Shown here piece by piece: positions 141-12,947 of a DNA stretch of 14,049 bases; within the stretch, counting starts at the first letter, position 1, and each line of letters starts with the position of its first letter. A program made the position numbers and the translations under genes. The stretch comes from Candidatus Bipolaricaulia bacterium (lineage in GTDB: Bacteria; Bipolaricaulota; Bipolaricaulia; JBHIAT01), in the NCBI GenBank assembly GCA_046758705.1, contig JBHIAT010000090.1, forward strand, positions 1 through 14,049. The letters are read 5' to 3'. Below the pieces are notes generated by a model. It made no database searches and was not told where the DNA came from. It saw nothing but the letters and a program-made list of their open reading frames with translations.

Positions 141-2206
<2,066 letters not shown>

Positions 2207-2210
<4 letters not shown>

Positions 2211-4957
2211 GCCGAGAGACCATCAGCGGGCGGACAATCAGCGATGACATTCACCTCCTCGGAGACACCCTGGGGACGGTGCTGTGCTTCAAAGCCGGGG
2301 AGACGTTCTTCGACCTGGAGGAGCAAATCCGCACGCTGGCCAAAGATCGTCGCCAAGCGAGCGACCCGGCCGTACGTCGGGCAAAGCACCGGGAGCTGGC
2401 CGAGCTGATCGACTCCCTGGATCTGGTGGCTGTCTACAGGGTGGCCCGTGCCTTCACCCTCTACTTCCAGCTCATCAATCTTGCCGAGGATACCCACCGA
2501 GCTCGGGTGTTGCGGCATCGGGAGGCAGAAGCGGACATCCTGTCTGAGTCGGTTGCGGATGCGATCCGGATCTGCTCGGAGCAGGGGATCGCCCCTGAGA
2601 AGTTGCAACGTCTTCTCGATGAGCTCGACATCTGTCTCGTGTTCACCGCCCATCCCACCGAGATCAAGCGTCGGGTCGTCCTTGAGAAGCTCCAACGGAT
2701 CTCCAAAGCCCTGTTCGCCCTCGAGCGGATGCGCCTGACCCCTTTCGAACAAACAGAGCTCGAGCACAACCTCCGAAATGAAGTGGTCAGTCTGTGGATG
2801 ACGAGTGAGGTCCGGAAACAGCGTCCCAGCGTCCTTGATGAGGTGGAGCACACCCTCTACTTCTTCGATGAGGTGCTCTACGGGTTCCTCCCCTATCTCT
2901 ACCATCGCCTGGAGAGCGCGGTGGAACGCTTTTATCCCGGGGCCGGCATCTCGGTCCCCACGCTTCTGCGCTTCGGATCGTGGAGTGGGGGGGATCGGGA
3001 TGGGAACCCGTATGTCACCCCGGAGATTACTCAAACGACCCTGGAGATGCACCGACAACTGATCTTGAACAAGTACCGAGCTGAGGTCCGGAGGCTGATC
3101 TCGGAACTCTCCCTGGCCGAACGCCTCGTCCCGATCCCCGAGGCGCTCTGTGCCTCCCTGGCCGAAGAGCGACGTGCCTATCCCGATCCGGCCGAGGAGA
3201 TCGAGAAACAGTACGCCGGAGAGCCTTATCGAATGAAGCTGGCCTTTATACAGCACCGCCTCGAGGCGGCGATCGCAGCTCCCGGCCGGGGCTATCCGGA
3301 TTCAGAAACCTTCCTGAAGGACCTGCGTCTGATCCGTCGGGCGCTCCCTGATTCCCTGGCCGAAGAATTGGCCACCACCCGCCTCCGTGATCTGGAACGC
3401 CGGGTCGAGACGTTCGGCTTCCACCTGGCAGCCCTCGATATCCGAGAACACAGCGACGTTCACGGAGATACCCTCGAGGAACTGTTCGCCCAGACTGGGA
3501 TCGTCAACGGCTACCAGCAGCTCCCCGAGGCGGACAAGGTCGAGCTCCTGGTCCGACTCTTGAAGGAGGGGATCTCGTTCGATCCCGACGGGGATCGGCT
3601 CTCGGAAGGCACAAACCGGATGCTGGAGGTGTTCACCGCCCTGCCGGGGCTCAAAGAGAGGTTCGGCGAGGCGGCGATCGGAAGCTACATCATCTCCTTC
3701 GCTCGAGACGCGAGTGATGTGCTTGAGGTGCTGCTGCTTGCTGAGGCGTTCGATCTGGTGAACCTGGAGACCGGGGCGGGTGGGATCGACATCGTTCCTC
3801 TGTTCGAGACGGACGAGGATCTGCGCCGCGCTCCCCAGGTGCTGGAGGCCCTGTTAGCGATCCCTCTCTATCAACGCATGTTAGAGCTGCGTGGCAAGGT
3901 TCAAGAGGTGATGATCGGCTACTCAGACAGCGGCAAGAAGTCCGGGATCCTGACCGCCGGCTGGGAGCTGTATCTGGCCCAACGACATCTGGGGACGCTG
4001 GCCCGGGAGCGGGGGCTGGAGCTGCGGGTGTTTCACGGCCGGGGGGGGTCGATCGGCCGGGGCGGCGGCCCGACGAACCAAACGATCCTGGCCCAGCCGC
4101 CGGAGGTCGCCAATGGACGGCTGAAGCTGACGGAACAAGGGGAGGTCGTCGCCTACAACTACGCCCATCCCTGGATCGCGATGCGCCATCTCCAGCAGGT
4201 GACCCACGCGACGTTGCTTGCCCGCGCCCAGGCTGAGGCGGGCCAGGGAGAGCCGGAACCGGGCTGGGTCGAGACGATGACCCGCATGGCCGAGGTCGCC
4301 CGCCAGACCTACCAGGCGCTCATCTACGAGACTCCGGAGTTGCGCACCTATTTCGCCGAAGCGACCCCGATCGACGAACTCGAGGCACTGAAGATCGGCA
4401 GTCGCCCCCTATCGCGGAAGGGGACCCGAAAGATCGAGGATCTGCGGGCGATCCCCTGGGTGTTTGCCTGGATGCAGAACCGCTATGTCCTCCCCGGCTG
4501 GTACGGCGTCGGCACCGCCCTGGAGGCCGCTGCCCAATGGGTGGGATGGGAGGAGCTCGCCCGGATCTCCGACCGCTGGCCGTTCCTGGAAACTTTTCTC
4601 TCGAACGTGGAGATGTCACTGGCCAAGGCAGACATGACCATCGCCGCTCACTACAGCGAACTGGTTGAAGATCGCAACCTGGGGCAGGCGATCTTCGCCC
4701 GAATTCGGGAGGAGTATGAACGGACCTGCCGGGCGATCCTGAAGATCTCCGGACAGGGGACGCTTCTCGAGAAGAATCCGATCTTGCAGCACTCGATCAC
4801 ACGACGCAACCCTTACGTTGACCCGCTGAGCTATATCCAGGTGGCGATGCTGCGACGTCTGCGTCGGGCGACCGATCCCCAAGAGATCAGCCTAATCCGG
4901 GATGCCATCCTGCTCAGCATCAACGGAATCGCGGCCGGGTTGAAGAACACTGGTTGA
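2207..4957 (+). CDS. ppc: Phosphoenolpyruvate carboxylase (bacterial/plant type)
   Basis: 916 aa from ATG 2207, which overlaps the upstream stop (ATGA). Motifs [60 protein letters not shown] and C-terminal [10 protein letters not shown]. Confidence 0.97.
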
Positions 4958-4981
4958 CTTTGGCGGGTACTGGAAGGAGGT

Positions 4982-5010
4982 TTGAGAGTTGAGTTAAAAT
5001 ATGATATAAT
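4982..5010 (+). promoter_or_regulatory. Near-consensus sigma70 promoter in the IS left end
   Basis: TTGAGA (4982-4987), 17 bp, TATAAT (5005-5010) with extended -10 TG (5002-5003); 40 bp upstream of the tnpA ATG. Confidence 0.75.
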
Positions 5011-5050
5011 ATGCTCATAGCTATACAATAAAGGTGTTCACACATACACA

Positions 5051-5701
5051 ATGGATCGTTATTATTCCATCGGCCAAGTCAGCGAGATACTCGGTGTTTC
5101 CATTATTACCCTCCGGCGCTGGGATAAGTTGGGAAAGCTTGTCCCAGACATCCGTACCCAGGGAGGACACCGTCGCTACAGCGAGACCACCCTGCGTCAG
5201 TTCCTGGGTCAGCCGTTGCCTTCCTCGCCTAGGGACAAGAAGGTCATCCTCTATGCTCGTGTCTCTAGCCGGACTCACAAGGATGACCTGGAGAACCAGG
5301 CACAGACATTGAAACAATTCTGCATTGGGGCCGGACAACCCTATGACGAAGTCTGGACTGATATCGGATCTGACTTGAACTATCGTCGCTCCAAGTTCCG
5401 CCAGCTCATCACCGAGGCGCTGAACGGACGCCTGGAGAAGGTCATCGTAGCTCACAAAGACCGACTGGTCCGCCTCGGCTACGATCTTATCGAAGACATC
5501 TTCGCTCACTCCGGCACCGAACTGGTAGTCATCAACCGCTCTGAGACGCCAGAGCCAGAGTTCATGCACGAGTTGACTGAAGACTTCGTTGCCATCGTAC
5601 AACATTTCTGCACGAAGTTCTACGGCCGGCGCTCCTATAAATGCAGGCAGGCCAAGGAGTTGGCTCGGCAGACGATGCACATCCTGGAGGAAGAGGATTG
5701 A
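5051..5701 (+). CDS. tnpA: IS607-family transposase TnpA (MerR-like HTH + serine recombinase)
   Basis: 216 aa; N-terminal HTH YSIGQVSEILGVSIITLRRWDKLGK...RTQGGHRRY; catalytic YARVSS; HKDRLVRLG; ELTEDFVAIVQHFCTKFYGRRS. Confidence 0.93.
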   Translation: MDRYYSIGQVSEILGVSIITLRRWDKLGKLVPDIRTQGGHRRYSETTLRQFLGQPLPSSPRDKKVILYARVSSRTHKDDLENQAQTLKQFCIGAGQPYDEVWTDIGSDLNYRRSKFRQLITEALNGRLEKVIVAHKDRLVRLGYDLIEDIFAHSGTELVVINRSETPEPEFMHELTEDFVAIVQHFCTKFYGRRSYKCRQAKELARQTMHILEEED

Positions 5702-6960
5702 GAAGGACAATCAGGCGTTACAGCCGCTCCCTGAATCAGAGCAAGTGGCAGACCGTGCACTGGCTCGCTGCCGCTTATGCAGCTCAGAAGGACCGCTTCC
5801 TGGTGGAATACGGCCGCCCATCCAGGTTCGCCCGTCACCAGAACCACCGCCAAGCGCGGGACGAACTGCTGACAATTGGCTACCAAAGCCCCTTCGGCCT
5901 GCAAGCGCGTATGTGGAAGCTAGCGCTCCAGGATGCTATCGAGACGATAGATCGGCAGTGGCTGGCCCTGGCCGAAGTCCTGCGTCCGTTGGTGATGGCC
6001 CAGAAAACCCGGGGTCACTTCACCGACGAGCAAGCTCGCTATGCGTTCTGGGTGCTGAAGTCATCTCGGCACATGGCTCAACTGGTGAGTGGCAGGGCAC
6101 CGTCTCCACTACACTTCCCCATCAGCCGCAAAGAGCAGCGTCGGATGGCCGCCTATCTGCGCCGGATCATCCGGCGCAAGCGTGGGAAAGATCCCCGAGT
6201 CAGGCAGGTGTGCAGCTTGGTTTTGGATGCTGAGATGTACCGAGTCTTTGAGCAAGACGGTCATCAGTATATCTCGATCATGACCCTCACACCTGGCCGG
6301 CGCCTGGTCATACCCCTCACCGGGCGGGGACCTCTCCAGGGTAACCTACGTATCGTGCTGAATGAGGAAAAGCGGTGTATCGCAGTACACCAGACTATAG
6401 AGGTGAAGCCTGAGCTGGCCACCGGCGGGCCGAAAGCGGTAGACTTGGGCGTAACCGAGGTCATGACCGACTCCGACGGCGACCGGTGGGGCGAGGGTCT
6501 GGGCCAGCGACTCGCTAACTACTCGGACCAGATATGCGACAGAGGTTCCCGCCGTGAGCAGGTCAACGCGAGCTACTCCAGCCAAATGTGTCCTCGCTGC
6601 GGGTTCGTCCACCGCCAGAACCGCCGTGGGGACAGGTTTCAGTGCCTGTTTTGCGGGCACGGTGGAGAGAGCGACGCGATGGCCGCCCTGAACCTGCTGG
6701 ACCGCCGACATGATCCCGAGATCTTCCTTTGGACGCCGAAGGAGCGGGTCCGGGCGGTCCTAAAAAGCAGGTTCCATCGCCGGTTGGAAAGGTGGGCGTT
6801 CGACTTTCCACCGCAGCAGGTCAATCTAGCTGTTCTGGCTGAGGTAGGGATCGAGCCTCCAACTACTGTTCCGGGCAGGATTCGAGACACCCGACCGTCT
6901 GCGCCTTCGGTGGACAAGGGTAGGGACCCGGCGGGTCAATCCGAGAGCGAAACTCCGTAG
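5698..6960 (+). CDS. tnpB: TnpB (IS607-associated) with an in-frame internal deletion of the bridge helix/RuvC-II region; predicted nuclease-dead and possibly a pseudogene
   Basis: TTG 5698 overlaps the tnpA stop and has GGAGG at 5686-5690; 420 aa. RuvC-I AVDLG (D at 6442), VNASYSSQMCPRCG...FQCLFCG zinc finger and RuvC-III SDAMAALN (D at 6673) are present. Only 49 codons separate the RuvC-I Asp from the first Zn-finger Cys, and no RuvC-II Glu strand is visible. Confidence 0.85.
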   Translation: MRRTIRRYSRSLNQSKWQTVHWLAAAYAAQKDRFLVEYGRPSRFARHQNHRQARDELLTIGYQSPFGLQARMWKLALQDAIETIDRQWLALAEVLRPLVMAQKTRGHFTDEQARYAFWVLKSSRHMAQLVSGRAPSPLHFPISRKEQRRMAAYLRRIIRRKRGKDPRVRQVCSLVLDAEMYRVFEQDGHQYISIMTLTPGRRLVIPLTGRGPLQGNLRIVLNEEKRCIAVHQTIEVKPELATGGPKAVDLGVTEVMTDSDGDRWGEGLGQRLANYSDQICDRGSRREQVNASYSSQMCPRCGFVHRQNRRGDRFQCLFCGHGGESDAMAALNLLDRRHDPEIFLWTPKERVRAVLKSRFHRRLERWAFDFPPQQVNLAVLAEVGIEPPTTVPGRIRDTRPSAPSVDKGRDPAGQSESETP

Positions 6961-7037
6961 GCCGCGATAAGGCAGCGGACCGAACGTGGTCATATTTGAC
7001 CAAGTTAGGAGGAACAGAGATGCCATGATGCCGACCG
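6866..7037 (+). ncRNA. Predicted TnpB omega-RNA: scaffold about 6866-7017 plus flank-derived guide about 7018-7037
   Basis: CTGTTCC (6866-6872) is the exact reverse complement of GGAACAG (7011-7017). Internal stems: GGATT 6878-6882/AATCC 6938-6942, GAG-CGAAA-CTC 6945-6955, CCGC 6962-6965/GCGG 6975-6978, TGGTCA-TATT-TGACCA 6987-7002. It overlaps the tnpB 3' end, as is typical for omega-RNAs. Confidence 0.65.
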
Positions 7038-7708
7038 CGAATCGTTCATCTGTAGACCGGGCTTTAGAGACTGATAAGCGGCTCATGGACGTCTACGGCC
7101 CGTCGGCCCGTCGGCACCGCGACCCGGTGAGCGTGTTGGTGGGCACCATCCTCAGCCAGAACACCAACGATGTGAACCGAGATCGGGCCTTCGATCGGCT
7201 GCGCGAGCGGTTCCCGACCTGGGAGACGGTGCGGGACGCCCCGGTGGAAAAGATCGCCGAGGCGATCCAGGTTGCCGGGTTGAGTCAACAGAAGTCTGCC
7301 TCCATCAAGCGGGCACTCCAACACATCAGCGAAGAACGCGGCGAGCTACGCTTAGACTTCCTGCGGGAGATGAAGGTGGCTGAGGCAAAAGGATGGCTCA
7401 CCTCAATCAAGGGGATCGGGCCCAAGACGGCAGCGATTGTCCTGCTCTTCTCTTTGGGCATGCCGGCCTTCCCGGTCGATACCCACGTCCATCGGGTGAC
7501 GAAGCGACTGGGCGTGATCCCGCCCAAGGCGTCGCGTGAGCAGGCCCATGAGATCCTCGAAACCCTGATACCTCCAGAGCGATACTACGATTTCCACCTC
7601 AACTTGATCCGCCACGGCCGCGAGGTGTGTAACGCCCCGACCCCCCGATGTGATGCCTGCGTACTCACCGATCTGTGCGGCTATTATGCTAACCTTCCTC
7701 GCCAGTAG
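7025..7708 (+). CDS. nth: Endonuclease III-family DNA glycosylase/AP lyase (HhH-GPD, 4Fe-4S)
   Basis: 227 aa from ATG 7025 (ATG 7028 is an alternative); ILSQNTND, HhH LTSIKGIGPKTA, FPVDTHVHRV and C-X6-C-X2-C-X5-C (CNAPTPRCDACVLTDLC). Confidence 0.9.
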   Translation: MMPTANRSSVDRALETDKRLMDVYGPSARRHRDPVSVLVGTILSQNTNDVNRDRAFDRLRERFPTWETVRDAPVEKIAEAIQVAGLSQQKSASIKRALQHISEERGELRLDFLREMKVAEAKGWLTSIKGIGPKTAAIVLLFSLGMPAFPVDTHVHRVTKRLGVIPPKASREQAHEILETLIPPERYYDFHLNLIRHGREVCNAPTPRCDACVLTDLCGYYANLPRQ

Positions 7709-7710
7709 GT

Positions 7711-9027
7711 TTATTCTGGAGGTTTCAGAATCGAGACCACGTAGTGATCGAAGTAGCGTTTGGCCGCCTCTTGGAGATCCTCGGAGTTGAGCGTCCGGAT
7801 GCGCTCCGGATAGAGCTGATCCATCTCAAACCCGGCACCGAGCATCTCCCACCAGCCGAGGTACCAGGCCTGTCGCTCGGTCGTCTCATGGGCCATGACG
7901 TAGTTTCCTGCCAGGAAATTCTTCGACCGGTCGAGATCCTCGGCGGTGACCCCGCTCTGCCTAACTTCATCCAGCACGGCCAGGATACCATCTCTCGCCT
8001 GATCGACCGCCTCCGCCGGGGTGATGATGTAGGTGAGGAAGTGGCTGTTCGCCATCCGCGACGGGAAGAACGATCCGACCTGGTAGGCCAGTGGTCGTTT
8101 CTCGCGGAGCTCCACGAACAACCTGGAGCTCAGCCCCTCTCCGAGCACCGTATTGAGGAGCTTCATCGCCGGATAGTCCGGATCGGCCACCGTCGGACCC
8201 AGATAGCCGAGCATCATCCAGGCCACCTGGCTCTCCCGTTCGACCGAAATCTCCACGTTCTCCTTGGGTGAGAGCGGGGGCAGGTCCCGGATCAGCACGT
8301 CGGCGACCCGTGCCCGCAATGGCAGCTCCCCCGGCTCAAGCTCACCGAACGCCTGCTGGAGACGCTTCAGCATCGCCTCGGCCTCGAAGTCGCCTGTGGC
8401 AACGACCACCATGTTGTTAGGAACGTAGTGATCCCGATAGAATCGAACGACCGTCTCCCGTGAGATGTTTCTCACCGTCTCCTCGGTCGGGGTGAGCGCG
8501 TAGGGGAAGTCACCGTAGAGTCCCTGCCTCAGGTTGTCCCAGATGACGGTGAAGAAGTTGTCCTGTTGGGCCTGGAGCTCCCGAATCATCTGATCCTTGA
8601 CTCGATCTACCTCACGTTCGGGGAAGGACGGGTGAAGCAACACATCGATATAGATAGGAAGCGCCTCATCTAGCGTCTCCCGGGTGGCTTGCAGGGATAG
8701 ATTGGTCATATCGGGCAGAAGACCGGTCCCGATCCGCACCCCCAGGTTTTCGATCCCCTCGAAGATCTCGTCCTCCGTCTTCGTCTCCGTTCCCTTCAAA
8801 AGCAGCCTCTGGGTGAGATCAGAGATCCCGAGTTGTTCCGGCGGTTCCAGCAGGACTCCCGTCCGAACGAACGTCTGGATCGCGATCACCGGGGATGTCG
8901 GGTTCTGCTTCAAGATCACCCGAAGGCCGTTCGACAATGTATGCTTCTCCTGGGCTGAGGCGATCGTCCCGGTGGCGATCATGAGTGACAACAGCAACAT
9001 CCCCACAACTAGCTTGATTGAAATCAC
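7711..9027 (-). CDS. M16B peptidase-family protein, non-catalytic subunit, with signal peptide
   Basis: 438 aa; GTG start overlaps the upstream stop (GTGA). HxxEH is replaced by DLTQR (GISDLTQRLLLKGT), but SSRLFVELREKRPLAY (R/Y motif) is retained; hydrophobic N-terminus ends ASA-Q. Confidence 0.88.
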   Translation of the reverse strand: MISIKLVVGMLLLSLMIATGTIASAQEKHTLSNGLRVILKQNPTSPVIAIQTFVRTGVLLEPPEQLGISDLTQRLLLKGTETKTEDEIFEGIENLGVRIGTGLLPDMTNLSLQATRETLDEALPIYIDVLLHPSFPEREVDRVKDQMIRELQAQQDNFFTVIWDNLRQGLYGDFPYALTPTEETVRNISRETVVRFYRDHYVPNNMVVVATGDFEAEAMLKRLQQAFGELEPGELPLRARVADVLIRDLPPLSPKENVEISVERESQVAWMMLGYLGPTVADPDYPAMKLLNTVLGEGLSSRLFVELREKRPLAYQVGSFFPSRMANSHFLTYIITPAEAVDQARDGILAVLDEVRQSGVTAEDLDRSKNFLAGNYVMAHETTERQAWYLGWWEMLGAGFEMDQLYPERIRTLNSEDLQEAAKRYFDHYVVSILKPPE

Positions 9028-10415
9028 TGTCCTTCACCCCCTTTGGGTTTTAATACTACCTCGACGTACCGATCCAGGTCGATATAGCGGTTGGCCGTCC
9101 GGACGAGATCCTCGAGGCTGACCTCCCGGATTCCTTCAGGATAGCGAACGGCGAACCGATAATCCCCGGCGACGACCGCGTAGAACCCCAGAGTGAAAGC
9201 GAGCCCCGCATTCGTCTCGCTGCTGAACGCGTAATCGGAGAGCAGAATCGTCTTGGCTCGCTCGAGCTCCGTTGCGGTCAGGTCACCCGACAGCACCCGG
9301 CGCAGCTCCTCAAAGATCGCCACCTCCACTATCTCTCGGTTCTCATAAGGGAAGACAGCAAAGACGGAGAAGATCCCCGGCTCTTTCTGGGTCAGATAGC
9401 TGGCATCGACGCTGGTCACGATTTCGAGCTCTCGGTAGATGTTCTTGTAAAAGCGCGACCCCCGGCCTTGTGAAAGCACCGCGAGCAGCACATCCATGGC
9501 ATAGACATCGTTTGCCTGCCGAACGCTCGGAGCCGGCCAGCCGATCGCAAGATACCCTTGCTGGACGTCCCGTTCGATCACGGTGACCTGTTTTTCATCA
9601 CGCATGGGCTCTTGCGGATACACAGGCTGGGACAGTTGGCGAGACTCAAAGTCCGAGAACGCGGCGTTGACCGCGGCCAGAACCGCCTCGGCATCGATCT
9701 CACCCACCACCACCAGGGTCATGTTGTTGGGCGCGTAATACCGGTCCATGTAGCTCAATAGATCCTCCCGATTCAACTGGTTCAGGCTCGCCTCGGTCCC
9801 GGCGAGCGGCAGATGGTAGGGATGGACCCGGTAGAAGCTCTGGAACAGTTGGAAGAAGGTGAATTGGGTCGGATTGTCCGATCGCTGGGCGATCTCGTTG
9901 CGCACCACATCCAGCTCCCGCGCGACCTCCTCCTCCGGGAAGACCGAATGGCCGGTCACATCGGCTAAAATGTCGATCGCCCGCCCTACGTGCTCGCTGG
10001 GCACGACTGCAAAGTAGTGGGTCCAATCGAACGAGGTCGCCGCATTGGTCCGACCTCCGACGCCCTCGATCTCGCGGTCGATCGCCCCCGGCGGCCGACG
10101 CTCCGTCCCTTTGAACAGCATGTGCTCGAAGAAGTGAGAGATGCCGTTGTCGATCTTGGTCTCGTTGATCGTCCCGGTGTTGACCCACACGTCCACCGCC
10201 ACGATCGGAACGCCAGGTCGCTCAACGATCAGGACCGTCAACCCGTTCTCCAGGGTGAATGCCTGGATATCAGTGGACGTGATCCCCTGGGCGAGTCCGG
10301 GCGACGCCCCCAGCCATAGCCATACCACCAGAACCAGAGTCGTCACCCATCCCACCCGGAGAACCGCCCGGCCTGCCCTTGCTCTTGACACAGATCTGAG
10401 ACATCGCTGCTTCAT
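9024..10415 (-). CDS. M16B zinc peptidase (pitrilysin/insulinase family), catalytic subunit, with signal peptide
   Basis: 463 aa from ATG 10415 (AAGGGG RBS at 10421-10426); GISHFFEHMLFKGT, NAATSFDWTHY, ELDVVRNE, YYAPNNM; basic n-region and hydrophobic h-region ending GLA-Q. Confidence 0.92.
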   Translation of the reverse strand: MKQRCLRSVSRARAGRAVLRVGWVTTLVLVVWLWLGASPGLAQGITSTDIQAFTLENGLTVLIVERPGVPIVAVDVWVNTGTINETKIDNGISHFFEHMLFKGTERRPPGAIDREIEGVGGRTNAATSFDWTHYFAVVPSEHVGRAIDILADVTGHSVFPEEEVARELDVVRNEIAQRSDNPTQFTFFQLFQSFYRVHPYHLPLAGTEASLNQLNREDLLSYMDRYYAPNNMTLVVVGEIDAEAVLAAVNAAFSDFESRQLSQPVYPQEPMRDEKQVTVIERDVQQGYLAIGWPAPSVRQANDVYAMDVLLAVLSQGRGSRFYKNIYRELEIVTSVDASYLTQKEPGIFSVFAVFPYENREIVEVAIFEELRRVLSGDLTATELERAKTILLSDYAFSSETNAGLAFTLGFYAVVAGDYRFAVRYPEGIREVSLEDLVRTANRYIDLDRYVEVVLKPKGGEGQ

Positions 10416-10455
10416 GACCACCCCTTAAACCTGGTTTGTTTTTATTTCAATGGTA

Positions 10456-10485
10456 ATTCTAACCGGTTGTGAAGCCGGGGATCAA
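10456..10485 (-). promoter_or_regulatory. Putative sigma70 promoter for the M16 pair
   Basis: On the - strand: TTGATC (10485-10480), 18 bp, TAGAAT (10461-10456). Confidence 0.5.
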
Positions 10486-10493
10486 CAACAAGA

Positions 10494-10509
10494 TGTAAGA
10501 AATCTTACA
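10494..10509. promoter_or_regulatory. CRP/FNR-family-like operator palindrome TGTAAGA-AA-TCTTACA
   Basis: Perfect 7-2-7 inverted repeat; fits TGTA-N8-TACA and TGTAA-N6-TTACA. Confidence 0.6.
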
Positions 10510-10581
10510 GTGATCCACCGTTCGATCCCTTAACATGAATTTAAGGAACATGCTTATAGGATTGTTCAAAGGTGATCGGGG

Positions 10582-10656
10582 ATGTTTTGGGTGTTTCTGG
10601 AGTTGGTTGGGCTGACCATATCCCTTCCAGCATATTTGCTGTTAAGGGGACGGTAG
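10582..10656 (+). CDS. Putative small hydrophobic protein (24 aa) MFWVFLELVGLTISLPAYLLLRGR
   Basis: ATG 10582 to TAG 10654-10656; AGGTGA SD-like sequence at 10570-10575 with 6 nt spacer; single-TM-like sequence with basic C-terminus. Confidence 0.45.
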   Translation: MFWVFLELVGLTISLPAYLLLRGR

Positions 10657-10704
10657 AGCAAAACAAACCTTGGACTGACAATCGATTCGAATCGAGAGAA
10701 AACT

Positions 10705-10782
10705 ATGGCTACTTACCGATGGTTGATGGCTCTGACGGTGACCATGATCAGCTTGGGGTTTATCGCCCTGGCCCTCAGGTAA
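10705..10782 (+). CDS. Putative small hydrophobic protein (25 aa) MATYRWLMALTVTMISLGFIALALR
   Basis: ATG 10705 to TAA 10780-10782; weak GAGAG SD; 19 uncharged residues between two Arg; GC-rich third codon positions in the 3' two-thirds. Confidence 0.45.
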   Translation: MATYRWLMALTVTMISLGFIALALR

Positions 10783-10833
10783 ATACGATCACCACTTGTC
10801 CAGGTAGCTGTCTTCAGCTATAGTTGAGTTACC

Positions 10834-11409
10834 TTACTCACCCTGGATTTTCTCAAGCGCCTCGGCGGCTGCCCTGCGCACGAACACGACCTCATCCTGC
10901 ATTGCCTCTCTCAAGGCAGGGACCGCATCCTGGGCATCAGGGCCGATCTGCCCCAGCGCCTGGGCGGCAGCTGAGCGTACATCCTCGTTCTCATCCTGCA
11001 GCGCCTTGATCAAGGCAGAGACCGCGTCCTGGGCATCAGGACCGATCTTCCCCAGCGCAACGGCGACGTTAGCGCGAACGCCTGCGTCCTCATCCCGCAA
11101 CGCCTCGATTAAGACAGGGATCGCGGGGGAGCCGATCTGCCCCAGTGCTACGGCAGCTTGCTCGCGCACGCGAAAGTCCTCATCCCGCAGTGCGTTGGCC
11201 AGAGCAGGGATTGCCTTCAAAGTCGCACCCCTTATCTCTCCAAGAGCCTTCACTGCATCCTGGCGGGTGGTCCAGAAGGGATTTTGCAGCGCCTCGATGA
11301 GTTCGTCGATGACTTGGTCTGCGTGTGCAGGACCTACCCGCCCAGCTGGAGTGCAGCCTGTTAAAGCGACCAACGCCACCACCACCAAAGAAAGTACTGT
11401 GCTCTTCAT
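10834..11409 (-). CDS. HEAT-repeat (PBS-lyase-like) lipoprotein
   Basis: 191 aa; GGGAGG RBS; lipobox LTG-C19; about five repeats of the type L.D.D..VR..AA.ALG.IG; a 99-bp-offset DNA repeat (10921-10959 vs 11020-11058, 36/39 identical). Confidence 0.88.
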   Translation of the reverse strand: MKSTVLSLVVVALVALTGCTPAGRVGPAHADQVIDELIEALQNPFWTTRQDAVKALGEIRGATLKAIPALANALRDEDFRVREQAAVALGQIGSPAIPVLIEALRDEDAGVRANVAVALGKIGPDAQDAVSALIKALQDENEDVRSAAAQALGQIGPDAQDAVPALREAMQDEVVFVRRAAAEALEKIQGE

Positions 11410-11481
11410 CAGACTACCTCCCTTCAGGGCTGTGCTCCGGATTTATCTAATAATAAACCTTTCAGCCCAGGTAACACAAAG

Positions 11482-12636
11482 TCACATGGCTTTTCTCAAG
11501 ACTTCCGTTAACTCCTCATCCGTCAACGCGATGGGATTCCCCTTCATGCTACTTGCCTTTTGGGACTTATCCACCACTGGTGGGAAGTCATCTTCTGTCA
11601 ACCCAAATTCAGACAGTGGTGGTACGTTCAAAGCCCCACAAAGGTCTTGCACCCAGGCGACCCCATCGGCCGCTTGCGCCGTGGCCTTTCCCGTCAGAAC
11701 CCGAGCCACCTCGTCATACCGGGTCAATGCCGGGGAGTTGGGCGCACGGGCCTGCAACGCACGCACGTTGGCCTCCATGACATGCGGCAACAGTCGAGCG
11801 CATATTACACCATGTGGAGCGGGAAACATGCCCCCCAATGGGCCGGCGAAACCATGTACGGCTCCTAATTTAGCGTTTGCCAGAGCTAATCCACCCAAGA
11901 GACTCACCAGAGCCATCTCCTCACGCGCTGCCACGTTGCTTCCATCTTCATAAGCTCGACGTAACGAACGGGCGGCCCGTTGCAGACCCTCTCGGCATAT
12001 CGCGTCTGTCAGTGGGTTTGCTTGGTTAGAAACGTAAGGTTCCATGACCTGAGTGAGTGCATCCAGCCCGGTACTGGCGGTTACGACCGGCGGCATTGAG
12101 TGAGTTAGCTCAGGATCAACCACAGCCAGGCGAGGCAGCATCAACGGGCTGCGCAGGCTTACCTTGACACGATGCTCAGGTGAAGCTAGTACAGCATTGT
12201 GCGTGACCTCAGCCCCCGTGCCGGCCGTGGTTGGAATGGCAATGTAGGGTGCGGCAGCCTGGGTGAGCGGTTGTCCATGGCCGATAACCTCCAGGTAGTC
12301 CAGCGGTTCGCCGCCGTTGGTCAGGAGCGCAGCAATCGCCTTGCCACTATCCAGAACACTCCCGCCACCCATGCCAATCACGAAATCGCTCCCGGCCTCA
12401 CGGGCACGCTGCACGCCTGCGAGGGCTATCTCCGTCGTTGGCTCACCGGGCACGTTAACCGTGACCGGTTCCATCCCCTGCTCGTTCAACTGTTCCAACA
12501 GCGGTGCGGCGCGCTCAACGGTACGGCCGGTGACAACTAAAACACGGCGTCCCATCCTGGTCGCCAGCGGCGCGACTTCCTGTAGAGTGCCTCGGCCAAA
12601 AATGATGCGTGTGGCAGTGGCAAATTCAAACCTCAT
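11482..12636 (-). CDS. Iron-containing (group III) alcohol dehydrogenase family protein
   Basis: 384 aa from ATG 12636 (ATGA overlap with the upstream gene); [43 protein letters not shown]. Confidence 0.92.
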
Positions 12637-12947
12637 AGCGAGTCCCAACCATCCTCATCAGGGAATACATTGGTGTATTTGATGCTGGTGCGTGGCTCGG
12701 CCATCATGTCGACCACGGTGTCACGCCATTTCTGATAATGCGTCGTTTCTTTGTGCCGGGCCGGGTCATCGGATGTGCGATAGACCTCGACGAGTACAAA
12801 GCGAGTCGGGTCATCTTGTTGTTGAATGATATCAAAGCGGGCGATGCCGGGCTCTTGAACGCTGTTACGGGCGTTTTCAAGAGAGGCCGCCTCGAAAGCT
12901 TCCACTTGGTCAGGCTTAACATGGACAAAAACGTGGACGATGAACAT
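12633..12947 (-). CDS. ABM (antibiotic biosynthesis monooxygenase)/LsrG-like protein
   Basis: 104 aa; AAGGAGG RBS at 12953-12959; [11 protein letters not shown]...[11 protein letters not shown]...[11 protein letters not shown]...[12 protein letters not shown]. Confidence 0.88.

Follow-up and report, generated by a model that had tools for sequence, protein, structure and literature searches.

An IS607-family element, probably of an undescribed TnpB/omega-RNA subgroup and inserted 3' of RGAG, at the likely Shine-Dalgarno sequence of a DNA glycosylase gene

The stretch of 14,049 nucleotides analyzed here (the window; contig JBHIAT010000090.1 of Candidatus Bipolaricaulia bacterium) carries at positions 4980-7017 a copy of an IS607-family element that probably belongs to an undescribed TnpB/omega-RNA subgroup and was probably inserted 3' of an RGAG motif through exchange at an AG dinucleotide. 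Elements of the IS607/TnpB kind are already known, whereas this subgroup is so far undescribed; it would be characterized by the size of its TnpB (about 540 aa), by GGAACAG as the constant terminus of the right end and by the lack of a RAGATH-18 motif. In the mechanism we propose, the serine-recombinase TnpA would place the element 3' of RGAG by exchange over AG without a target duplication. The RGAG struck here would be AGGAG, which an endonuclease-III-like gene has as its Shine-Dalgarno sequence, and because the two coincide the element separates this sequence from the ATG 7 nt on. The features of the region are:

4980..7017, plus strand: IS607-family insertion sequence, 2038 bp, delimited by the start and stop of similarity to a second copy (contig C115, 788-3159) and by gene content
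4975..4979, plus strand: AGGAG, the 5 nt that end the left flank, probable target/TAM and likely the native Shine-Dalgarno sequence of the glycosylase gene
4978-4979, plus strand: AG, presumed crossover dinucleotide, the same two bases with which the right end closes
4982..5010, plus strand: putative sigma-70-like promoter at the left end of the element (TTGAGA, 17 nt, TATAAT, with TG ahead of the -10 box; 11/12 matches)
5051..5701, plus strand: tnpA, serine-recombinase transposase, 216 aa, apparently intact (Pfam MerR and Resolvase; NCBIfam NF033518)
5698..6960, plus strand: tnpB, shortened in frame by an internal deletion of 321 bp to 420 aa compared with 544 aa in the intact protein (TnpB zinc-ribbon domain match)
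6866..7017, plus strand: predicted minimal omega-RNA (reRNA) scaffold, overlapping the 3' end of tnpB (RNAalifold)
7018..7037, plus strand: right flank, putative guide part of the omega-RNA as judged from TnpB/omega-RNA architecture, covering the start of the glycosylase gene
7025..7708, plus strand: HhH-GPD DNA glycosylase gene (endonuclease-III-like), 227 codons (Pfam HhH-GPD)

The second, diverged copy in the same genome is 86-91% identical to the window copy and represents a full-length relative of 2372 bp compared with 2038 bp here. At the left junction of the window copy TGGAAGGAG (4971-4979) is followed by GTTTGAGAG... from 4980, with the stop codon of ppc (PEPcase) upstream at 4955-4957, and at the right junction ...TTAGGAGGAACAG extends up to 7017 and is followed by AGATGCC and ATGATG (ATG at 7025 and 7028). 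Both copies have AGGAG directly in front of the left end and their flank directly behind GGAACAG, and they diverge exactly between AGGAG and the following G and after ...AACAG, which is more than coincidence. These junctions, together with domain matches of TnpA and TnpB, confirm the original prediction of an IS607 element directly 3' of AGGAG. In silico excision of 4980-7017 also produced the arrangement that had been expected, namely AGGAG, 7 nt and the ATG of the 227-codon HhH-GPD open reading frame. The encoded glycosylase stays below the cut-off of its best NCBIfam matches (195 of 400 bits for the DR2438-type monofunctional glycosylase and 108 of 211.7 bits for nth, TIGR01083), and its expression may be reduced because the intact gene now sits 2 kb from its ribosome-binding site. 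Logan contigs from three runs read through the two junctions and the deletion point in tnpB and showed 0 differences at these places, but these runs are not independent because they are possibly the very samples behind the assembly; run X4 contained low-depth flank pieces only and nothing over 4887-7001. An empty-allele joint was not seen in these four runs of one study, which has no bearing on its absence. Terminal inverted repeats were not found in the element, the sole match being an internal 8-nt inverted word, and the search for subterminal direct repeats, the expected TnpA-binding sites, gave nothing convincing in the element. From the occupied sites with AG at both ends we infer an IS607 element without target duplication. 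The second copy has a promoter-like sequence at the equivalent place (TTGACA, 17 nt, TATAAT), and the putative left-end promoter is presumed to drive tnpA on the basis of its consensus match.

The gene content is in line with the IS607 family. TnpA, a small serine recombinase that carries a MerR-like HTH at its N-terminus, reaches 193.4 bits against NCBIfam NF033518 (IS607 family transposase, cut-off 110) and is 87% identical to the TnpA of the second copy. The TTG start of tnpB at 5698 overlaps the tnpA stop codon (5699-5701) on the same strand, which is the gene order of IS607 elements. The deletion point in tnpB lies between 6541 and 6542 and corresponds to about residues 287-393 (107 residues) of P0001, the 544-aa intact TnpB of the second copy, in which 55 relatives show no variation at D253, E356, D437, C409, C412 and C430 and almost none at C427. 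As the deletion takes out the region of the RuvC-II glutamate E356, the window TnpB is predicted to be nuclease-dead and unable to cut DNA; the set of RuvC Asp-Glu-Asp triad plus CxxC...CxxC zinc ribbon is incomplete in the window TnpB through the loss of E356 and complete in P0001. The RuvC-III motif of TnpB aligns to Cas12f/TnpB and the match to NCBIfam guided_TnpB (91.8 bits) is slightly below the cut-off of 100. Foldseek searches with the AlphaFold2 model of P0001 (pLDDT 89) retrieved TnpB/Cas12f folds with E values from 1e-13 to 4e-9, with AsCas12f on top (1.5e-13), ISFba1 TnpB (8iaz) at rank 11 (7e-11) and ISDra2 TnpB (8h1j) at rank 22 (4e-9). By sequence, only the RuvC and zinc-ribbon part aligns to solved TnpBs and the N-terminal, TAM-reading part to none of them.

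A search with TnpB as query across the class, whose 183 other genomes make up the whole phylum set, did not find the element apart from one weak match (E 1e-31), and a DNA search for the empty site in 40 relatives from the same class matched the glycosylase gene only weakly and yielded no junction of ppc with it. The collection of genome contigs contained at least four loci, all in one MAG among the matches listed, and the metagenome contigs at least 16 loci with the family right end in L028, L029 (duplicate L030) and L033 and possibly in L031. At least two distant loci were present in the viral contigs, the plasmid collection yielded no relatives, and two matches were obtained in 390 genomes of the class of genome G184. 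Among the matches listed (best 120 of 157) the closest protein relatives are 63-67% identical.

The right end had been predicted at ...GGAACAG (7017), and the wider family bears this out. Similarity ends at the position equivalent to 7017 in 13 right junctions (the window, the second copy, L028, L029, L033, L058 and seven in genome G184), and all 13 distinct junctions finish with (G)GAACAG and have unrelated DNA beyond. The terminal GGAACAG (7011-7017) pairs with CTGTTCC (6866-6872), which closes the omega-RNA structure, and RNAalifold with seven family members resulted in 37 pairs, 12 of them with compensatory changes in the closing and inner helices. In this structure 92.8% of the cells are paired compared with 26.6-44.2% with slid partners and the covariation score was reached by 0 of 500 shuffles, the structure being derived from the same seven-sequence alignment that was used to score it. 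The alignment shows a conserved, covarying structure at the right end with the last seven bases in the closing helix, as expected for a guide RNA. RAGATH-18 gave no Rfam match in the window at the gathering score and none in either copy at E values up to 10. The last ~150 nt of the element would form the omega-RNA scaffold and the host bases from 7018 the guide, a use of the flank that we infer by analogy with other TnpB systems (Zedaveinyte et al. 2023; Ren et al. 2024). An intact TnpB, for example that of the second copy, would then recognize the empty donor site, made up of RGAG and the right flank, and cleave it, and such cutting would correspond to the homing or retention role shown for other TnpBs. 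The TnpB of the second copy may in this way also act in trans on the window element.

On the left side 11 junctions could be placed, which are not independent lineages because genome G184 alone supplies eight of them and short deletion derivatives are included. At all 11, positions -3 to -1 read G-A-G and position -4 holds a purine; position -5 is variable (five A, three T and three G). This flank is kept although the left-end sequences differ from lineage to lineage. AGGAG is present in four of the 11 flanks and the others read GAGAG, TAGAG, GGGAG, TGGAG or AAGAG. For L028 and L058 the left boundary was not placed, with no left-end match or no RGAG where expected, and further copies are truncated by contig ends. 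At all placed junctions AG precedes the left end and recurs as the final dinucleotide of the element, which agrees with the predicted 2-bp AG common to left flank and right end. Since RGAG is found at 11/11 left junctions and AG is shared, the target/TAM of the clade appears to be RGAG with an AG core and not AGGAG as such; of the proposed AGGAG target the purine motif left of the element stands, but its conserved part is shorter. The AG crossover and the original target are deduced from occupied sites, in which RGAG would act as the TAM.

It is rather unlikely that the target is specifically AGGAG, the Shine-Dalgarno sequence, and that gene starts serve as an adaptive "safe harbour" sparing open reading frames, possibly with an AGGAGG at the right end replacing the displaced ribosome-binding site. 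AGGAG is indeed located on the left of both copies in the genome and is the measured TAM of another IS607 TnpB clade, and AGGAGG occurs in the right end of the window lineage (7007-7012). Furthermore, two insertions split a ribosome-binding site, the window element and, in G184, a mini-element of 280 bp that lies 10 nt ahead of glnD, and all five elements with both junctions known are at gene boundaries and none inside recognizable genes. However, most left flanks have another pentamer, and an open reading frame of at least 100 codons starts 4-12 nt after the right junction in only two of 13 cases. In the genome of the window 9.0% of the 12,032 AGGAG sites precede such a start (control 5-mers 3.4-9.5%) by a similar, though not identical, rule (start 4-10 nt away, ATG or GTG only), and at a background of 9% two or more of 13 are expected about one time in three by our own arithmetic. 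The second copy in the genome is not at a gene start; a 41-codon open frame on its left, which looked like a peptidase N-terminus, had no Pfam match and no homologue, and we therefore treat this site as intergenic. The right-end AGGAGG would lie 12 nt ahead of the ATG in the window and 15 nt ahead of it at glnD, rather far for a Shine-Dalgarno sequence. Other members of the family have different hexamers at this place (AGAAGG, AGGTGG, TCATGG, TTTGGG), so that it is not conserved, and it falls in paired positions of the omega-RNA. The predicted steering of insertions to gene starts is thus not supported, given the background of about 9% and the site of the second copy. Steering to ribosome-binding sites is weakly supported and the placement in one is best read as a by-product, occasional rather than the rule: the Shine-Dalgarno consensus and RGAG overlap, and selection would let insertions at gene boundaries survive. 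It is similarly doubtful that a second IS607/TnpB lineage settled independently on a Shine-Dalgarno-like RGAG, with ribosome-binding sites and gene boundaries as a selected "safe harbour" and a purine-rich right end that partly restores translation; in that reading, neither the guide RNA of the lineage nor the TAM-reading half of its protein would be related to those of the published AGGAG clade.

We consider it very unlikely that AGGAG is internal to the element, with the left end at 4975, and shared by descent instead of target preference. At the left junction the two copies in the genome agree in a stretch of 11 bases, AGGAGGTTTGA, and from these two copies alone an internal AGGAG is indistinguishable from a target motif. 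In G184, however, eight copies of one left end (TAGTTAATAG...) vary at -4 and -5 and keep GAG, L029 has TAGAG ahead of a left end homologous to that of the window, and the preceding dinucleotides, GA in the window and CG in the second copy, would mismatch the AG of the right end and break the 2-bp identity rule. The least probable alternative is a crossover at GG (4979-4980 with 7011-7012), with the element ending at 7012, AACAG as host DNA and an empty site reading ...AGGAGGAACAGAGATGCC: classical IS607 elements terminate in GG and insert at GG and AGGAGG is present at both places in the window, but the right end is fixed at 7017, since AACAG follows GG in 13/13 right junctions, which stem from six separate sources and differ in their flanks, and belongs to the invariant helix with CTGTTCC, which already contradicts and rules out this crossover.

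With RGAG and the AG core as the preferred reading, the element can be compared with known systems. ISDra2 TnpB (IS200/IS605), which Karvelis and colleagues are said to have described in 2021 as an RNA-guided RuvC nuclease, reportedly has an omega-RNA that overlaps the tnpB 3' end with the guide in the flank; ISDra2 itself reportedly uses an HUH/Y1 transposase with single-strand "peel and paste" transposition, an AT-rich TAM and a protein of much smaller size. Besides the fold match to P0001, the window element would resemble ISDra2 in the RuvC nuclease family, the omega-RNA over the tnpB 3' end and the flank guide. As outlined in the text of Chen (2018; PMC6188088), IS607 elements exchange at a 2-bp identical sequence with a GG core, and most members terminate in GG. 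The window element ends in ...ACAG and its flank in ...GAG, but this mismatch does not exclude membership because the GG rule is usual and not universal. Like the classical IS607 of H. pylori and the Clostridium botulinum IStron (TnpA_S/TnpB), the window element has no terminal inverted repeats and apparently no target duplication (PMC6188088; 10.1101/2023.11.20.567912), and a 2-bp exchange sequence is identical in target and element end (PMC6188088). For an IS607-type element, the IStron, the preprint of Zedaveinyte et al. (2023; 10.1101/2023.11.20.567912) describes that the TAM equals the TnpA target motif and that the element is retained because TnpB cleaves the donor joint. The core is GG and the TAM TGGG in these elements, according to the same two sources, whereas core AG and motif RGAG would apply to the window family, and the group I intron of the IStron is absent from the window element.

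The closest parallel to the motif is found in the ISFba1/ISEre1-type IS607 elements, which like the window element have a serine-recombinase tnpA followed by tnpB and whose guide RNA comes from the right end, as is predicted here; the left flank of the window element matches their purine-rich TAM ending in AG. In the main text of Ren et al. (2024, Cell Res, PMC11061315) the TAMs of the ISFba1 type are given as 5'-AGGAG or 5'-GAGGG, with an AGGAG TAM in 18/22 strains of a clade with RAGATH-18 reRNA and a TnpB of 330-433 aa. The statement that AGGAG is a reported TAM of an IS607 TnpB was therefore correct, but it concerns another clade: as far as this main text describes the ISFba1 type, the window family differs by having no RAGATH-18 match, a TnpB of 544 aa instead of 330-433 aa and a looser left-flank consensus, RGAG. 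The TnpB of ISFba1 is related to P0001 in its fold, and only the RuvC and zinc-ribbon part can be aligned by sequence between both groups. Ribosome-binding sites are not discussed in the main text of Ren et al. (2024; PMC11061315), with 0 occurrences of Shine, ribosom or RBS.

The choice of the target sets both the damage caused by a transposon and the sites that its RNA-guided nuclease can defend. The element would add a TnpB/omega-RNA subgroup that exchanges at AG instead of GG and has RGAG as a flank motif of 4 nt, and it provides a concrete TAM prediction for a clade of ~540-aa TnpBs that is found mostly in metagenomes. Furthermore, under the background rule (4-10 nt, ATG/GTG) about 9 in 10 of the AGGAG sites in this genome do not qualify as ribosome-binding sites, and the overlap between TAM and Shine-Dalgarno sequence alone does not direct insertions to gene starts in a GC-rich genome.

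Direct reading of the window bore out the sequence layout that the original prediction had claimed for the IS607-family element at 4980-7017, with the following features.

PEP carboxylase gene, upstream of the element, ending at 4957
4971-4979: left flank, TGGAAGGAG
4982-5010: near-consensus sigma-70-type promoter (TTGAGA, 17 nt, TATAAT), directly at the left end
5051-5701: tnpA, MerR-type HTH and resolvase catalytic domain
5698-6960: tnpB, TTG start overlapping the tnpA stop
Right end, ...TTAGGAGGAACAG, last base 7017, followed by AGATGCC and ATGATG
HhH-GPD glycosylase gene, 227 codons, downstream of the element, from ATG 7025

TnpA passed the NCBIfam model "IS607 family transposase" (193.4 bits, cut-off 110), and the glycosylase is endonuclease-III-like, with NCBIfam scores for nth below the cut-offs. 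Removal of the element in silico leaves 7 nt between AGGAG and ATG; in the window, the insertion thus did hit a gene start. The right-end AGGAGG (7007-7012) was not accepted as a built-in replacement ribosome-binding site, because it lies 12 nt from the ATG, is not constant among relatives and falls partly into base-paired positions of the RNA. Located 7 nt past this AGGAGG is a mini-ORF of two codons (ATG CCA TGA, 7020-7028), the stop of which overlaps with the ATG of the glycosylase gene (ATGA); speculatively, it might couple translation after insertion. The other genes of the window (141-4957 and 7711-12648) are ordinary and encode a DUF255 thioredoxin-domain protein, PEP carboxylase, two M16 peptidases (minus strand), a HEAT-repeat protein and an iron alcohol dehydrogenase.

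The genome holding the window (G000, 319 contigs) contains one further copy on the minus strand of contig C115 (788-3159), which is 86-91% identical to the window copy. The similarity of both copies extends from AGGAG/GTTTGA... to ...GGAACAG/ and the flanks beyond are unrelated, which fixes the element boundaries. The C115 copy comprises 2372 bp and codes for an intact 544-aa TnpB (P0001); the window tnpB lacks 321 bp in frame (gap between 6541 and 6542). The 107 missing residues include E356 in the VVVHENL motif, and E356, D253 and D437 are invariant among 55 relatives. Because E356 is lost, the window TnpB should be incapable of DNA cutting, and TnpA, 87% identical between the two copies, looks whole. 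Contigs of three public runs from one study span both junctions and the tnpB deletion, which rules out a local mis-join; in them, the right junction of C115 is present as a loose end. These runs are possibly the assembly's own source and do not count as independent evidence. In a contig of one of the runs compared (X2), which carries the same insertion, 7 differences from the window fall within 21 nt (4951-4971) just left of GGAAGGAG and only one elsewhere in ~900 nt of ppc, which could reflect local strain variation or gene conversion beside the insertion site. The C115 copy is situated between a mutY gene and an AT-rich stretch preceding a CRISPR array, which lies ~500 nt past its right end (C115:1-~290, to the contig end; 37-nt repeats, at least 4 spacers) and gave only a weak CRISPR-DR10 match in Rfam (E 1.3). 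An HhH-GPD glycosylase gene adjoins both copies (nth-like in the window, mutY on C115), which is probably a coincidence with n=2.

The left end could be placed in 11 elements, namely the window and C115 copies, metagenome contig L029 and eight copies in G184, a genome of another phylum, some of which are deletion derivatives of 280 bp and 840 bp.

Five bases before the element at the left junctions
AGGAG: 4/11
GAGAG: 2/11
TAGAG: 2/11
GGGAG: 1/11
TGGAG: 1/11
AAGAG: 1/11

The target proposed originally, AGGAG, does flank both copies of G000, but the motif shared across all junctions is only RGAG: G-A-G never changes, position -4 is a purine throughout and position -5 is variable. The L029 left end can be aligned with that of the window, whereas the left end common to the G184 copies differs (TAGTTAATAG...). 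As RGAG persists although the left ends differ between lineages, and as positions -4 and -5 vary among copies of one element, these alignments indicate that RGAG is host DNA and represents a target preference. Furthermore, the last two flank bases equal the last two element bases (AG) in 11/11 cases, as predicted from the exchange over a 2-bp identical core described for IS607-type serine transposases (Chen et al., 2018, PMC6188088), but with AG instead of the classical GG core. Against this reading stand the left boundaries of L028 and L058, which were not placeable, and the fact that G184 alone supplies 8/11 left junctions; moreover, an empty site was found for none of the elements. In G184, the elements on C45 (L072, 280 bp) and C2 (L063, 840 bp) are MITE-like deletion derivatives that retain hardly more than the left end, including its promoter-like TATAAT, and the terminal ~100 nt of the right end. 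On C45, the mini-element splits the glnD ribosome-binding site, and its left flank (...CAGGAGGAACGG/GGAG) resembles a right-end terminus (GGAACGG), perhaps left behind by a previous insertion nearby.

For the right end, metagenome contigs L028, L029 (identical to L030) and L033 as well as G184 and G231, both from another phylum, served as relatives. All 13 distinct right junctions terminate in GGAACAG (one as GAGAACAG), and the DNA beyond is unrelated. The terminal GGAACAG has its complement in CTGTTCC, an invariant heptamer ~145 nt upstream (window 6866-6872), and RNAalifold paired the two in seven family members within a structure of 37 pairs, 12 of them with compensatory changes. Scored on the same small alignment from which the structure was derived, 92.8% of the cells pair, compared to 26.6-44.2% with partners slid by 1-3 columns, and 0/500 shuffles reached the observed covariation. 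Judged by this pattern, the paired right-end RNA is the expected omega-RNA scaffold. It is predicted to overlap the tnpB 3' end and to terminate at 7017, which would place the first base of the guide at 7018, on the glycosylase gene start. The crossover at GG 7011-7012, originally considered as an alternative, is excluded because every right junction ends at (G)GAACAG and this heptamer is paired with CTGTTCC.

The original statement that AGGAG has been reported as an IS607 TnpB TAM was right: Ren et al. (2024, PMC11061315) measured 5'-AGGAG in 18/22 strains and 5'-GAGGG in 4/22. Their TnpBs comprise 330-433 aa and use a RAGATH-18-derived guide RNA, whereas the TnpB described here has 544 aa and its own omega-RNA without RAGATH-18, for which Rfam gave no match at gathering score or at E up to 10. 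Its sequence aligns to solved TnpB and Cas12f only in the RuvC and zinc-ribbon part; the predicted fold (pLDDT 89) shows a general match to Cas12f and TnpB structures, with ISFba1 TnpB (8iaz) at rank 11 among the structure matches. Due to the different size, guide RNA and partial alignment, the published TAM is not simply transferable. As one and the same motif serves as TnpB TAM and as TnpA target in an IS607-type IStron (Zedaveinyte et al., 2023, preprint, 10.1101/2023.11.20.567912), we predict RGAG or NRGAG as TAM of this clade.

The idea that such a target steers insertions to gene starts is considered unlikely. A start codon opening at least 100 codons follows 4-12 nt downstream at only 2/13 right junctions, that of the window and that of the 280-bp mini-element in G184, which lies 10 nt before glnD (857 aa, Pfam GlnD_UR_UTase); two further junctions are questionable, one with an ORF of 78 codons at +3 and one with a GTG at +17 and the contig breaking off. 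In G000, an ATG or GTG opening at least 100 codons is present 4-10 nt downstream of 1,084 of 12,032 AGGAG sites (9.0%), and other 5-mers reach 3.4-9.5%. Against this background, two or more of 13 would be expected about one time in three by our own arithmetic. No gene start follows the C115 copy, 76 nt past mutY and ahead of the AT-rich stretch and CRISPR array. In L029, the insertion separates brxA from brxB in a BREX operon and has the opposite orientation, and the L058 element is located after the stop of a convergent ORF. The related full element on L029 (2793-5197) gives the order brxL-brxA-IS-brxB in this defence operon, and the brxA frame extends 15 nt into its right end. All elements with both junctions known are located at gene boundaries, none inside recognisable genes, which fits selection against disruptive insertions equally well as targeting.

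Taken together, the observation behind the original prediction was confirmed and its interpretation in part supported. IS607 elements and their 2-bp core are already published, as are homing by TnpB and AGGAG as a TAM. Among the openly accessible papers listed by full-text searches on IS607 and TnpB, no title or abstract connects the TAM with ribosome-binding sites, and Shine-Dalgarno or ribosome-binding wording is absent from the main text of Ren et al. (2024, PMC11061315) and one review. New is a separate subgroup that has a longer TnpB and an omega-RNA of its own and combines an AG core with an RGAG flank, together with the quantitative result that placement in ribosome-binding sites is only occasional in this subgroup.
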